Source: Podospora anserina (lineage: Eukaryota). Taken from it: a stretch of DNA of 64,000 bases. Position numbers and translations under genes: made by a program. Of the stretch, positions 1 to 32,104 are shown one piece after another. The stretch spans positions 1,302,001-1,366,000 of the forward strand of contig CM030338.1 in the NCBI GenBank assembly GCA_017654855.1, in the 5' to 3' direction. The first letter of the stretch is position 1. Each line of letters begins with the position of its first letter. The notes beneath the pieces were generated by a model. The model made no database searches, had not been told where the DNA came from, and worked only from the letters and a program-made list of their open reading frames with translations.

Positions 1-3000
1 ACTACCACCCACTGCTGCCGCATTCCCGGACGCTACAGACGATATCAGACCCTTGACACTTATAAGTCGAGATAAAATGACCATCTTGGGACGATCTCCA
101 AAGTACCTTTTGTTTCGTACCACCCCCAGGTTTCATGGCGCTCTCTCTGAGCATATGCAGTGTGGCACAAGAATACTTGATCCGATCCCAGCCGCTTGAC
201 TGGTGACAGGATAGGATAGGCACGTTTGATGGAAGACGGGAGACGGAAGAGATGGGACAGCAGCCACACCTGGGGTTTGCGCGGCCCATCGCCATCTGCT
301 CTCTCTCCCTCTTAGGCCCAAGGTGAAAGAAGAGAGGAAAGAAAAGGGAAGAAAGTCCGTGGGCTATGCTGCCACTTGCATATGCGCAATGGCCATCAAG
401 AGCGAATGGCTGGTCCGGCTTGTGGTCGGTCGCATGCGACCGGAGCTGAAAGCTGCAGATGTGGACGGTGCAAGCTTACAGCTACACTACGAACAGCGCC
501 ACATCTGGAGTAGTGTTACAGAGCACCGTACCGTAATTACACGGCTGTAAGTCTGAACGTCCGCCAAGAGAAAAGGTCGTCAGACTAACACCCGGCTAGA
601 CTCGCCCTGCTGAAGACTCCTCCTGGCTGGCGTGGCTGGCAGCAAGCTGTTCAGACTCTCTCATGACAGGCCTCTTGACAACAAGTCAAATCATGCAGCA
701 AAATGACTCCTTTTTCGTGTTTCGCTAGTCGAAGAGTAAATGACGCGTCCCGCAGCAAGAAGAGCGCGTATCACAGCTCCCGGCCGATCGTAGGACTTTT
801 TTTTTTTCATGGGGATTTTTAGTTGCATGAGCCGTGAGGAGTCATATCGATATCCGCCACCGCCCAGAATCTATATGAGTGGCCCGTCGAGATCCCACCA
901 GAAACTGGAACTGGTAACTCGGGTAAACAGTGAGGCGTCAACTGAATACCTTGTGTGAATGGCTCCAGGACTTTCAGATAACGTCCGTAGTCGGGCAGCC
1001 AAGTCTGCAGCCAACTCTTGTTCTGAAAAAGAGCGTCGTTTCTGACTTGTGACTTGTGAGTTGTGATATTAACAGAATCACCGTCACTCCAAGGTACCAT
1101 CCGCTCCCTTATTAGCGACACTGGCGTCCTGAGAAAGATAAACTGCCATGCAACTGCATGGTCTAGATTAAACACTGTTCGTGTTGCCGCTGAATGGACA
1201 GACGGTCGCTTGAAAAGGCCGGTGCCGTTTGTGATGGGCCACCTCTTCAGTCATGCATGAAGCTCGCTTGGTGAGGCCTCAAGAGCCATATTGTGCGGTC
1301 CATCACGCACACCATCTGGGTCTTGATGGCTTGGGATGGGGTTCCCCCTCCTTGCAAGCCGCCAAAAAACGTTCGAGAAGAAAGCAGCCGGAGCATGTTG
1401 GCGGCGGGGAAAAGACAAAGGCGTCATTTGCCATGGCGAGATTGTCTAAATCTCAAGCCATCGTCGTGATCACAAGATAGACCTCAATCTTCCCTTTGCC
1501 CAGTGATATGAAGCGGTGCCCTAGCCCGAAATCATGACGAGATGACAGAGACGGCGTAGCCATGTTGAAGGCTGCCCTGGAACCAAGGCTCCAACCCCAT
1601 GACTGCATATCGTAAGATTAGGAGTCCTTCCGCAGTAGACGCAAGAAGCGAGGAGCCGAAAGCGAAAAAGATATCAACATCAGCTTGGCCAGAAGGAAAC
1701 ATGAAACACACAAGCGCGCTGCTGGAGGCGTTCTTCTCTTGTCTCAACTCCCTCAGTGGCTGACTGTCTGCCCATCAATAAAAGATCCCGCCCACCCCTC
1801 CCGAACATGCCGGTCTTGTTGCTGGAAATCTTGCTCGACGCCACACGTTCGACTTTCTTGGGCCCAGCACTCGACCAGTATGTCCCGATCTGGGCATGCC
1901 GCAGGAGGAGGATGGGACCCAGCCAGCCGGCTACACGTCCTGCGATGGCGATATTCGACACCGACTGGTCCCTTTGTCGAATTGTGCGGCCAGGGGTGGG
2001 TTCCGGAAGGAGATGTTCGAGTTGCAACATGCCACTGGCATCCCACTGGCACCCCCAAACGGGCAATATAGAGTGCAGGAGAGGGGGGAAGCATCGCCAG
2101 TGAATGCCAGCCTCTCGTCGGTCCCGTGTCATGGATGACAAGAGCAGGCATGGCATGGCAGACCATGCTAGCGCAGAAGGTGAGCAAAAAGGTGTGTAAG
2201 TTGGGATCCCTGCTATTGAGCCTCATTGGCTGCCGGCCTGACGCCCTCCTCCGGCCGCCATCTTGGAGAAAGACCGAGGATACGGCAGGCGATTGGGTGA
2301 AAAACTCGAAACGAGGGCAAAAAGGGTGGTGCCGCTTTGCGACGTTACTGCAGACTGGGGTGGCCTAGAACCACCTACCTGACGTCCAGCCTGCCAGATT
2401 AGAAGTGAGCGCGAGGCTGCTGTAGAACCGGCATCTGTTCCTGTCTGGGGTGTCAAATCTCCGTATACTTGGTTATGATAATCATGGTGGAAATGATGAC
2501 GATGCTGATACTGATGCTTGGTGTTGATGCTGCTGGAAGCTGAACGTGGAGCTAGCTGCTGCTGTGAGGGCGAGGTGAAGTCTGTGAGAGAATGCCCAGA
2601 CCTGCCCAGCTGAATTACGAATACATGGAGAGGGGTTTGTGCGTATCCAAACTTGGAAGCACGGTGGATCTGCAGCCTTTTCTCTCTGCAGCCCCACTGT
2701 TTCCAACAACGCAACTACACTTATACACACTGTCACTACAAATTGTGGCTTGGCTCATGTGGCTTGCGTATTCTTTCCTCTCTTGTGTGACGGGAGGTGA
2801 GGCAAAAAGTGCCGTCTCTTGCCGCGCAGCAGCGCACTCGTGACTGACAGTCACTTGACTTCGGCCGGGCTTCCTTCTTCAGGCCAGTGTCCCGTGATCG
2901 CAAATATTCCTGGATCTCTGTGAACCTCCTGTTTCGGCCAAACACGCCCACTGCCCACTGCCCACTGGCAGATCGTCTCTTGCTCGCGACCACAGTGCGG

Positions 3001-4509: not shown

Positions 4510-4589
4510 AAGACATATACCATCCGTAAAGGCATAAACTCACCGTCGAAGACATATACCATCCGTAAAGGCATAAACTCACCGTCGAA
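4510..4589. repeat. Perfect 39-bp direct tandem duplication (2 copies)
   Basis: aagacatataccatccgtaaaggcataaactcaccgtcg occurs at 4510-4548 and again at 4549-4587; lies in the presumed 3' UTR of the 8071-4733 gene. Confidence 0.95.
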
Positions 4590-4732: not shown

Positions 4733-5298
4733 TTACCAATCCCCCAACCCAGCAATCCCCTCCTCCTCCTCCTCCTCCTCCTTCTTATCATCATCCCACC
4801 CACCATCATTCCCCCCTTTATCCCCCCCCTCTTTCTTCTTCCCATCATCACTCTTGTTCCCACCCGTAACATTGCTAGCAACAGCAGCAACTAATCCCCC
4901 CAACCCGCCCAGCCCCCACCCAAAACCCCCAAGTTTATTCCCCAACTTCACCCCGCCATCATCCTCCTTCCCAACAGGAGTAGGAGTCCTAAACTCCCCC
5001 TCTGCCTTTTCCTTCCCCTTATCCACCTTCTTTTTCTCAGGGGAGTTTGGCCCCGGTGTCTCGTTCCATGAGCCAGGCATGGACATCTCACTGTTGTTTG
5101 GTTTCTTCTTGTCCCACGGATTCGGATCGACGTTTTCGTTGTCCGAGTCGAACTGGTCTTGGGGTGAAGGTTGAAAGGTGAGTTTTTTGCGGGAGGATTT
5201 TTTGCTGGTGTTGGTTCCTGTGAGGGAGGCGGGTTTGGGGAAGGTGAAGGGGGAGGGGGGTTTAGAGGGGGGGTTGGGGTCGGGCCAGGTGTTGTTGC

Positions 5299-5353
<55 letters not shown>

Positions 5354-5501
5354 CTCGTTGCCCCAGCTGTTGTCATTGGAGGTATCATTGTTGTCACCCG
5401 AGTTGTTGTTGTCATCGTTGCCCCAACTGCCGCCGCCGTTGTTGTTGTTCTCAGCCGAGGTATCATTGTTATTGTTGTCGTTGCCCCAGCTGTTGTCGCC
5501 G

Positions 5502-5535
<34 letters not shown>

Positions 5536-8071
5536 CGTTGGAGGTATCGTTGTTGTCCCCAGAGGAGTTATTCTCATTACCCCAACCGCCACCCGCATTG
5601 TCATTGGAGGTATCGTTGTTATCCCCAGAGGTGTTGTTTTCGCTGCCCCAACTGTCGCCGCCGCCGTTGTTGTTGAAGGTATCATTGGAGTTGTCGTTGG
5701 AGTTGTCGTTGGAGTTGTCGTTAGAGTTGTCGTTGGAGTCATCATTTCCGTTGCCCCAACCCCCCCAACTGTTGTCATTGGAGTTTTCGTTGGAATTGTC
5801 GTTTCCGTTACCCCAGCCGCCACCGTTGTTGTCATTGTTGCCATCAGACCCGGCCTTGGTGCTCTCGGTGAACTGAACAGCAGGAGAGGCCGACCTGCCC
5901 TTCTTCCCTCCTTTCTTGTTCTTCCCTCCTTTGCTGTTACTTCCGCCCTGGTTGTTACCTCCGCCCTGGTTGTTACCTCTGCCCTGGTTGTTACTTCCGC
6001 CCTGGTTGTTACCTCCACCGTTGTTCCCTCCACCGCCCTTGTTGCCGCCAGAGCCAGAAGCCACATTCGGAGTTCCCTGCTGCGCCCTAGGTGTCCCCCG
6101 GCCCTGGCCCTGCCCCTGTGACGCCGAATCATTCGGCCATATCGGAGGCACAGCGTTCAACTGCCACGACCCCGGCATCTGCTGCCACTGCTGGTACCCA
6201 GCCATTCCCTGCGGAGTAAAGTTGTGAGGACCGTAAGCCCCAAGCTGCACGGGAGGCTGCATCACAGGCGGCGGAGGACCCTAGCCTCCCCACGCAGGAC
6301 CGCCAGGTTGATGGGACCAGTAGGGATTCGGGCAGTCTGTGTGGATGATGTTGGTCACAGGATGCACAACACCATCCCCGGCGTAGCCATAGTTCTGGAA
6401 CTGGGGGTGGATAGGAGCCGGCGGAAAGCCCGCAGGCACAGCGGGCTGCTGAGCTGGGCTGTCAAAGACTTGGACATGACCGTCTAGGTAGTAGGCGTTG
6501 CGCGGTGGTTGGACGGTGGCTGAGCGAGAGGGGACATGCTGGACGGTGGCTGATCCCTGGGCGTTGTTCGAAGACTGGTTGCCACCGTCGGGTTTCTGCT
6601 GATCAGACTTGTTCTGGTTTTGGCTGGTACCAGAGCTGTCGCCGGCAGCCTTCTTGTTGTTCTGGGGGTTATCCTGCTTGCCCCTGTCTCCCTTTTTATC
6701 GTCCTTCTTGCCCTCCTGCCTCTCGTCCTTCTTGTCCTCTTTCTTGCCCTCCTGTTTCTCGTCCTTCCTGGCATCCTTGTTCACACCCTTCTTGTCATCC
6801 TGCTTATCATCCTTTCCGTCCTTCTTTCCATCCTTCTTGCCCTTGTCATTCCCCGAAGAACCACCCTTCTTCTTCAGACAGTCTGTAAGCAGCGCCGCGG
6901 CTATCTCCTTTCTAGTTCGGGGCTTGCTCAACTCCCGGCCCAGGAGTCTCCGACCCTGAATGCAGTTCTCGCAGCCGCATGTGGCATGGGGCTCCAGATC
7001 GGGGGTGACAAAGTCGTCAGGAGCGCCCGCGTCTTGCTTCTTCGTGTTGTGCTGGCCCGACTTGTTGTCTTTTGACTTGTCCTCGGTCTTATTGTCATCA
7101 GCCTTCTTCTTGTCCTCTGCTTTCTTGTTGCCCTCGACCTTCTTCTCCGCCTCCATGGTCTTGCTGGACTCACCCTTCTCGTCAGGCTCGGGAGGGGCCA
7201 GCTTAGCCTCGGCCGGCGTCTTGCTGCTCTGAAGCGGCACCTTTGCGACAAAAGTCTCGCCCTCGCCGTCGCTGCCCGTATAGACCTCAACCTGAAATTT
7301 CGGCTTCTTGGCTGTGGTGTTGACAGGTTTCTCCGTCTCTTGAGTCTTCCTGACCTCCTTGGGTTTGGCAGAGTCAGCCTTCTTCTCCTCCTTTGACGGA
7401 GATGACCTGGGATCGCTCGGTTTGCCCTTTGTTTGTTGTTGCTTGTAAGCCTTGGAAACTGCCAACGCTATAGCCATGGCGCGCTCCTCCTCGTCTGAGT
7501 CAACGTCTGAAAAGATCTCGGAAAGTCGCTTGGTCGTGGCCGCCTCGATCTCTGCCTTCCTCTTGGCCTCCTCTTCTTTCGCTTTCTCTTTGGCCACCTT
7601 CCTGTCTTGAGCAGCGTGAACCGTAGCAATTGTTCTAGCCTCAGCTCGGGCAATGGCAACACTAGCCTTTTTAAGTGCGGCGGCAGCGGCAGCAGTAGCC
7701 TCGATGTCGACGGAAGCCGTCTCGGCTTGGGCAGCTTGGGCGGCTCTTGCTTTGTGACAACTCTTGTGCTCTCGAGGATGACGGGACTCGCCATGCTCGC
7801 GGTGCTCGTGGTGCTCGTGGTGCTCACTGACTCGATGCCTGGTGGGCGGCTGAGCAGTAGTCGAACCTTGTCGATCGTAGTATCTGTCTCGGGATGGGGA
7901 CCGATGCCTAGAGGGGGGCCGGGGTCTAGAATCGCGGCGCCTGGAATCTCTGCCTCTGTACTCTTTCTCCTCTGATCTCCGTCTCTCCGGCTCGGGTGTT
8001 GTCAGTCTCTCCTTTTCGGTGCGAGTGAGATTGCGGCCCATAATCCACTCCATCATGGTATTGGGAGGCAT
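4733..8071 (-). CDS. Low-complexity protein of about 1112 aa interrupted by one in-frame TAG (6283-6281); candidate editing-corrected premature-stop gene. Charged N-terminal half with UIM-like and CxCxxC motifs, N/G-rich WG-repeat C-terminal half
   Basis: ORFs 6281..8071 and 4733..6265 are in the same frame, joined by ...TGG GGA GGC TAG GGT CCT CCG CCG CCT GTG ATG... (PAWGG*GPPPPVMQPP). No convincing GTRAGT donor or CTRAC branch point flanks the TAG. Final stop is TAA at 4735-4733. Confidence 0.8.
5289..5352. repeat. (GTT)n microsatellite encoding poly-Asn on the minus strand; second tract near 5500-5533
   Basis: Long gttgttgtt run, in frame as AAC codons in the 8071-4733 gene. Confidence 0.95.
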
Positions 8072-8929: not shown

Positions 8930-9745
8930 CTACAGCTTAGCCCTCTCCCTCCTCTCCCTCTCCTCCCACTCCCTCTCCCCCCTCCAATTCCTCCACAACC
9001 CCCACCCCCCAACAACCAACGCCAACGGAGGACAAACCCACAAAACCCACCCCCACCACCTCGGGCTCCCCCTCTCCACCTCCTCCATAACCCTCCTCAA
9101 CTCCCTCTTCAGATCGTCCTTATCCCCATCATTCCAAACCACCACCCCCCCACCAAAAGCCGCCCTCTCAACCTTTTTCATCACCCCCCCCTGACTCCTA
9201 ACCCGATTCTCCGCATCCTCCCTGCTCAAATGCCCATCCCGCCTCATCAACCTCTCCATCTGAACCTCCTCATCCCTCACCCCAACAACCATAACCCGTC
9301 CCACATACCGATCAAGCTTACTCTCAAACAACAACGGCACATCCAACACCACCGCCCTTTTCCCTTTGACATACTCCCTCACCACAGCCCAAAACATGGC
9401 CTTCCTCACAGCAGGGTGCACAATCCCGTTCAGCACCCCCCTGTCCTTCGCCCTCTCCAGACTAGTACCGAAAACCCTCTTCCCGAGCGCAGGTCGGTTC
9501 AACGGGCGGCCTTTTCCGTTTGGTCCATTCTCCGGCATGTCCTCTGACACAGGGACGAGTAAGTCGGGTGTGCTGGGGAGGAAGTGCTTCACAATGGCAT
9601 TGTAACCCGGCGTGCCCGGCTCGACGACCTGGCGGGCGATCAGGTCGGCGTCGATGATGGGGAGGTTGTAGGGTGGCTGCGATAAAAGGGAGGAAACGGT
9701 TGATTTGCCCGTGGCTATCGAGCCTGTGAGGCCTATGAGCAGCAT
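8930..9745 (-). CDS. CAB5: Dephospho-CoA kinase (CoaE family) with C-terminal hydrophobic segment
   Basis: MLLIGLTGSIATGKSTVS P-loop, IIDADLIARQVV, LNGIVHPAV, VVLDVPLLFES; ATG at 9745 in AAAAATG context. Confidence 0.93.
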   Translation of the reverse strand: MLLIGLTGSIATGKSTVSSLLSQPPYNLPIIDADLIARQVVEPGTPGYNAIVKHFLPSTPDLLVPVSEDMPENGPNGKGRPLNRPALGKRVFGTSLERAKDRGVLNGIVHPAVRKAMFWAVVREYVKGKRAVVLDVPLLFESKLDRYVGRVMVVGVRDEEVQMERLMRRDGHLSREDAENRVRSQGGVMKKVERAAFGGGVVVWNDGDKDDLKRELRRVMEEVERGSPRWWGWVLWVCPPLALVVGGWGLWRNWRGEREWEERERRERAKL

Positions 9746-32031: not shown

Positions 32032-32104
32032 TGACCGACCCAGGGATCGAACCTGGCACCTTTTGTGTGTGAGACAAACGTGATAACCACTACACCAGCC
32101 GGCC
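32032..32104 (-). tRNA. tRNA-Val(CAC), intronless
   Basis: GGCCGGC TGGTGTAGTGGTTATCAC G TTTGT CT-CAC-AC ACAAA AGGTG CCAGG TTCGATC CCTGG GTCGGTC A; 73-nt cloverleaf with A and B boxes. Confidence 0.95.

Follow-up and report, generated by a model that had tools for sequence, protein, structure and literature searches.

How might a long coding sequence yield its full product when a single stop codon stands in the middle of it? The question is raised by a locus on the minus strand of a 64,000-nucleotide (nt) stretch of the Podospora anserina genome (GenBank assembly GCA_017654855.1, contig CM030338.1, positions 1,302,001 to 1,366,000; this whole stretch is referred to below as the window, and coordinates are counted from its first letter). 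There, a frame of 1,112 codons extends from an ATG at 8071 to a TAA at 4735-4733, with a TAG at 6283-6281 as its sole stop. The TAG lies in the loop of a potential hairpin (6273-6289), and an initial annotation of the window had proposed that the surrounding codons were selected to build an imitation of the anticodon arm of tRNA-Pro(AGG), providing a near-ideal substrate for the Tad2-Tad3 deaminase and hence high editing efficiency. We regard the TAG as a credible candidate for a premature-stop-correction site, A6282 being the base that would be edited from adenosine to inosine (A-to-I; UAG to UIG, read as Trp). The full reading that we prefer, in which the TAG is such a site in an intact gene of low complexity and the hairpin is mainly a by-product of the codons around it, we hold with belief and doubt about equally weighted; that A6282 is edited, whatever the part played by the hairpin, we judge probable by a small measure.

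One coding sequence with one interruption

When the two sides of the TAG are read in the same frame, the G+C content at third codon positions (GC3) is 0.67 before it (6284-8071; the first ATG opens 596 codons, the last of which encode ...PAWGG) and 0.70 after it (4733-6280; 515 codons and the TAA), compared with 0.67-0.76 in the five confirmed genes of the window and 0.41-0.50 in flanking non-coding DNA. Since GC3 is at a coding level in one frame on both sides, the TAG interrupts a single coding sequence. The two open reading frames (ORFs) that it separates (621 and 515 codons, stop to stop) make up by far the largest pair in the window to be split by a single stop; the other such pairs are much shorter, and their contexts resemble introns or off-frame ORFs. 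An intron that would remove the TAG was considered and rejected, as no consensus donor or branch site was seen nearby and publicly available contigs are collinear over the site.

The read-through product is of low complexity, its first half rich in Lys, Asp and Glu and its second half in Asn, Gly and Asp, and a search of it against Pfam returned no families. If the TAG is read as Trp, it gives the pentapeptide WGGWG at residue 595, which occurs again at residue 770, and 20 of the 21 Trp residues of the product are found at residue 586 or later. This Trp-rich part (residues 586-1113, encoded by 4733-6320 on the minus strand) contains 11 WG and 6 GW dipeptides amid Gly, Ser, Asn and Asp. A Trp at the position of the TAG, the recurrence of WGGWG and the concentration of Trp in this half of the protein all fit an ancestral TGG codon. 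In composition the Trp-Gly-rich part is presumably reminiscent of the Argonaute-binding GW/WG platforms known as 'Ago hooks'; a literature search on Ago hooks found nothing relevant to this protein. Within the same half, two period-3 arrays, at 5290-5353 (21 copies) and 5501-5540 (13 copies), encode poly-Asn runs in the frame of the gene, and contigs from public sequencing runs tend to break at both of these trinucleotide arrays.

The same arrangement would result from a plain nonsense allele, a TGG having been converted to TAG by a transition that was either spontaneous or like those of repeat-induced point mutation (TpG to TpA). In that case there would be no editing, the hairpin would be coincidental, and what lies after the stop would be a young relic of a reading frame; the gene would yield its N-terminal 596 residues or no product at all. 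This is the main rival to editing, and we rate it as possible, if rather unlikely. It has to account for the TAG being the only lesion in 1,112 codons, with GC3 undiminished downstream, and for the lesion having produced, in a context favourable to editing, the one stop codon that a single A-to-I change converts to sense. It gains from the low-complexity repeats, which hold several frames open regardless of selection, and from further observations on transcripts and homologues that are taken up below.

The context of the TAG and fungal A-to-I editing

Is the TAG placed where an editing enzyme might be expected to act? A-to-I editing has been called a common feature of Sordariomycetes, with Tad2-Tad3 and the cofactor Ame1 as the fungal mRNA-editing machinery (PMC11087585), just as the initial annotation had it, and deaminase genes rise in perithecium development in P. 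anserina itself (bioRxiv 10.1101/2024.12.09.627484). The neighbouring proteins at the locus point to P. anserina and its sister species, in the Sordariales. In the published table of preferences at Fusarium graminearum editing sites, which covers positions -2 to +4 (PMC9600606), the positions of greatest predictive weight are -1, +1 and +3. The context C-U-[A]-G-G-G-U has the preferred base at -2, -1, +1, +2 and +3 and a depleted base, U, at +4, a match at five of six positions. No published list of P. anserina editing sites was found in the literature searched, and PMC9972908 names editing in its references only. In Fusarium, about 70 genes require UAG-to-UGG correction (PMC11156358 and PMC4817773); the proportion of UAG or UAA triplets edited there, just some 9% (PMC4817773), is a point in favour of a plain nonsense allele.

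Structure adds less. [quoted passage not shown] Among published edited sites, 62% lie in hairpin loops, and stable ones are favoured (PMC9600606 and PMC4817773). Taken by itself this class nevertheless provides weak evidence for editing: 34-36% of the A, TA or TAG sites in the same eight coding regions also belong to it. In PMC9600606, moreover, primary sequence is described as outweighing structure, and editing levels as not predictable from such features; about one third of editing sites fall in predicted stems (PMC11156358). Mutations that moved the target from loop to stem lowered editing at three of the four sites tested in one Fusarium gene (PMC9600606). The initial annotation had presented the hairpin as independent support for editing. 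The five preferred bases and the hairpin-loop class stand, but with such a base rate for its class the hairpin must be called weak as independent support.

If the site is used as we suggest, A6282 would be the target, in sexual development, of the tRNA deaminase Tad2-Tad3 assisted by Ame1. Ribosomes would take the resulting UIG for UGG and insert Trp, and the C-terminal half, with its many WG and GW dipeptides, would be made at the sexual stage only. A genetic model fungus would then have a documented premature-stop-correction site, and the gene would illustrate how the Trp-Gly-rich half of a protein can be confined to sexual development. A bolder version can be imagined, in which editing acts as a switch that gates a WG/GW-repeat protein in P. 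anserina: in vegetative cells translation would yield nothing beyond the charged N-terminal part of 596 residues, deamination in perithecia would open the C-terminal half, and the sequence Gly-Gly-Trp-Gly-Pro-Pro would have been kept because the codons for it form a hairpin like an anticodon arm, to which Tad2-Tad3-Ame1 is recruited. We consider that this whole combination is highly improbable.

Evidence from transcripts and homologues

Several observations weigh against the reading of the TAG as a corrected stop in an intact gene. In all four public runs examined, out of 24 listed, contigs bridge the site and position 6282 is A, with no other letters, gaps or joints. The bridging contigs are collinear with the genome (X6, 5987-6743; X10, 6162-7140; X12, 5984-6510; X14, 5548-6487). 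Contig depth varies some twentyfold from one gene to the next and there are no contigs in intergenic bins, which suggests that the runs, none of them catalogued as RNA, are nevertheless of RNA. An unedited, unspliced form of the transcript exists, on this guess about the nature of the runs. The contigs come from unspecified tissue, and contigs drop minor variants, so the four runs have no bearing on whether editing takes place in perithecia. Next, these repeats leave another frame unbroken over 402 codons, so that the openness of the downstream frame is by itself weak evidence that it is coding. Nor is there any protein over 4733-8071 (-) in a collection of 15 billion proteins or in its representatives, in exact look-ups that covered nine candidate products of the locus, though neighbouring Podospora proteins are present. 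Finally, neither the protein searches nor the metagenome scan described below yielded an orthologue in which conservation of the TAG and the stem could be read.

The A in every contig examined is what a nonsense allele would give, and the want of a protein record or homologue might suit a fast-evolving or decaying orphan. RNA-like contigs extend downstream of the TAG (those of four runs from 5548-5654 onward, others at 4876-5282), which is less expected of such an allele; their depth is too poor for levels to be compared across the stop. Public records may simply lack an annotation of the locus, or may class it as a pseudogene. Protein searches revealed no true homologue; low-complexity words saturated some of the candidate lists, so relatives may have been missed. 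The best match (P0002) was rejected as a repeat protein similar by composition only, and another (P0003) as a 32-residue fragment far from the stop. A metagenome scan gave 230 pattern matches, none of them a relative.

The hairpin as a copy of an anticodon arm

The minus-strand RNA at 6289-6273 reads GGAGG-CUAGGGU-CCUCC, in which GGAGG (6289-6285) and CCUCC (6277-6273) form five Watson-Crick pairs that enclose a 7-nt loop (C6284 U6283 A6282 G6281 G6280 G6279 U6278). The A of the TAG is the third loop base, the position of A34 in a tRNA. The stem might be extended by GUGG (6290-6293) on the 5' side and, past a bulged G6272, by CCGC (6271-6268) on the 3' side (together 6268-6272), an extension that includes one G-U pair; in the MFE structure of the 33-nt segment the extension pairs in a slightly different register. 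In coordinates and description, therefore, the hairpin and its possible extension are as the initial annotation gave them. What is in question is whether they have been selected.

The geometry itself (a 7-nt loop with A as its third base, closed by at least five Watson-Crick pairs) is uncommon: each strand of the window has 63 instances in 63,974 positions, 2 of the 388 TAGs on the minus strand show it, and the local Gly/Pro-rich segment has it at 2 positions out of 335. It was, however, noticed after the fact. Apart from the present site, a single TAG of the window lies in such a hairpin with a 5-bp stem and 7-nt loop, at 1440-1456 (-), where the A is A1447 (gagat-TTAGACA-atctc).

As to the stem, it consists of GGA+GG paired with CC+UCC, and the Gly (GGN) and Pro (CCN) codons dictate four of its five pairs, A6287:U6275 being the sole pair open to synonymous choice. 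When codons were resampled 5,000 times according to local usage with the peptide GG-stop-G-PP kept, 27.5% of the resamples formed the stem. Because of these two results, selection at the codon level for the stem, as had been supposed, is unsupported, and the hairpin is more simply seen as mainly a by-product of Gly-Gly (GGN GGN) before the stop and Pro-Pro (CCN CCN) after it. One result tells against a mere by-product. When the order of codons was shuffled 20,000 times within 11, 20 or 40 codons on either side, the exact geometry appeared in only 133, 74 and 43 cases, respectively (0.2-0.7%); a looser hairpin (a loop of 4-9 nt including the A, and a stem of at least 5 bp) appeared in 4.1-5.2% of the same shuffles. 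These figures leave room for selection on the order of the peptide.

How close is the likeness to tRNA-Pro(AGG) in particular? The loop of that tRNA is typically UUAGGGU. Four tRNA families have AGN anticodons, and it follows from the genetic code and the range of ADAT2/3 substrates that any UAG automatically matches their U33-A34-G35. Since a UAG matches all the AGN tRNAs, it is the codon that follows, GGU, that makes the loop resemble tRNA-Pro more than the others. The general idea has a history: a likeness of fungal editing sites to anticodon loops has been in print since 2016 (PMC4817773), and mRNA sites have been described as similar to A34 both in their stem-loops and in their base preferences (PMC11087585; reviewed in PMC11156358). 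These reports, the exact and uncommon geometry and the effects of loop-to-stem mutations in Fusarium would all be in keeping with a selected mimic. Yet eukaryotic ADAT2/3 is described as needing full tRNA (PMC8216470) and as selecting its substrates independently of sequence, which, with the primacy of sequence over structure and the unpredictability of editing levels mentioned above, lends no support to a near-ideal substrate of high efficiency. Taking these points together with the folding results below, we find no support for the view that the anticodon arm of tRNA-Pro(AGG) was copied here by specific selection, and judge it improbable as an account of the site, though the hairpin may help locally.

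Competing folds of the stop region

The region was folded in silico with flanks of 15, 30, 40, 75 and 100-300 nt. With short flanks the hairpin predominates, its pair probability being 0.93-0.95 at 15 nt and 0.68-0.69 at 30 nt, and it is possible that it would be the first structure to form during transcription. With longer flanks its probability is 0.032 (40 nt), 0.16 (75 nt) and 0.002-0.004 (100-300 nt), and an 8-bp helix takes over, in which GGGAGGCU (6283-6290), including the -1 base U6283, pairs with AGCCUCCC (6251-6258), which lies within the codons for Gln-Pro-Pro. The pair probability of this helix is 0.80-0.96 at 40 nt, 0.57-0.79 at 75 nt and 0.84-0.997 at 100-300 nt. In isolation it has an energy of -14.4 kcal/mol, compared with -7.2 kcal/mol for the hairpin. 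The fold predicted in the context of flanks of at least 40 nt is therefore not that of an anticodon arm. The initial annotation had itself foreseen that pairing of GGGAGGCU with AGCCUCCC might dominate and bury the site. It was right that this helix dominates in silico once its 3' arm is included, but the site is not buried by it, as A6282 stays unpaired, with P about 0.99, whichever flanks are used. The -1 base fares differently: U6283 is free in the local hairpin and paired in the competing helix, unlike U33 of a tRNA.

Even where the hairpin forms, the MFE structure narrows its loop through a C6284:G6279 pair (P 0.49-0.69), leaving a 4-base loop and a bulged U. Nor is the hairpin any more stable than shuffled sequence, as the local folding that had been suggested as a check makes clear: at 33 nt z is -0.64, with an equal or better fold in 53 of 200 shuffles, and at 80 nt z is +0.86, with 156 of 200. 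All this tells against a selected mimic. The best 81-nt folds that contain one or the other helix differ by only 1.5 kcal/mol, and the competition between them therefore offers a convenient natural test of how much weight local structure carries for the fungal editing enzyme.

The competing helix of 8 bp is stable and covers the stop region, and this brings to mind a different route past the TAG, namely programmed UAG readthrough aided by a nearby helix. A helix of use in readthrough would be expected a few nucleotides after the stop, whereas this one holds the bases just before it, and to our knowledge UAG-GGU is not a known readthrough context. The bypass might instead consist of re-initiation at the first ATG after the TAG (6262-6260), 18 nt past its last base, which starts an ORF of 509 codons and would give the C-terminal half as a separate product; in a eukaryote, however, re-initiation would not be expected to follow an ORF as long as 596 codons. 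Translational bypass of either kind appears to us very improbable indeed, more so than any of the other explanations considered here.

Comparison with known editing systems

Of the known systems, the site on which our preferred reading, correction of the TAG by editing, depends is closest to the premature-stop-correction sites of F. graminearum (PUK1, about 70 other genes, and CHE1). At these, as is proposed here, a UAG that lies in frame and is the one break in its ORF is changed to UGG (Trp), with U at -1, purines at +1 and +3, a hairpin loop in the 30-nt convention, and Tad2-Tad3 with Ame1 as the proposed enzyme. There, editing is observed, whereas for the Podospora site we infer its occurrence, enzyme and timing from the sequence. 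The CHE1 site is reported to be conserved in related species (PMC11169179).

Comparison with the tRNA substrates of ADAT (A34 in tRNA-Pro(AGG) and seven others) gives a more mixed picture. The 5-bp stem, the 7-nt loop, the U before the target A and the G at positions 35, 36 and 37 are shared with an anticodon arm. In contrast to a tRNA, the Podospora site has at position 32 a C that is able to pair with G37, its -1 U is paired in another helix in longer contexts, and it has no tRNA body, whereas ADAT2/3 is reported to need the full tRNA (PMC8216470).

A third parallel is provided by the mRNA sites that depend on TadA in Escherichia coli, where an mRNA copies the anticodon loop of a tRNA in sequence and structure and is edited by the tRNA deaminase itself (PMC11169179). 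Bacterial TadA acts on the tRNA-Arg loop without cofactors, whereas the fungal deaminase works as a heterodimer, assisted by a cofactor specific to one stage, and some third of its sites fall in predicted stems (PMC11156358).

The locus and its neighbours

Neighbouring ORFs match, by exact look-up, named proteins of P. anserina S mat+ and of sister species. PODANS_7_5290 directly adjoins the gene, with 7_5340, 7_5350 and 7_5390 further along; a literature search on Pa_7_5260 to Pa_7_5310 found no papers. The dephospho-CoA kinase at 8933-9745 (-) is present letter for letter in the protein collection, where it is listed apart from the equal-length 2008 record PODANS_7_5290, and it therefore seems that the window differs slightly in sequence from the older record. 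The window has a single tRNA gene, for tRNA-Val(CAC), at 32032-32104 (-). In the presumed 3' region of the interrupted gene, about 150 nt past its TAA, there is a 39-nt tandem duplication (4510-4589; 2.1 copies, 100% matches).

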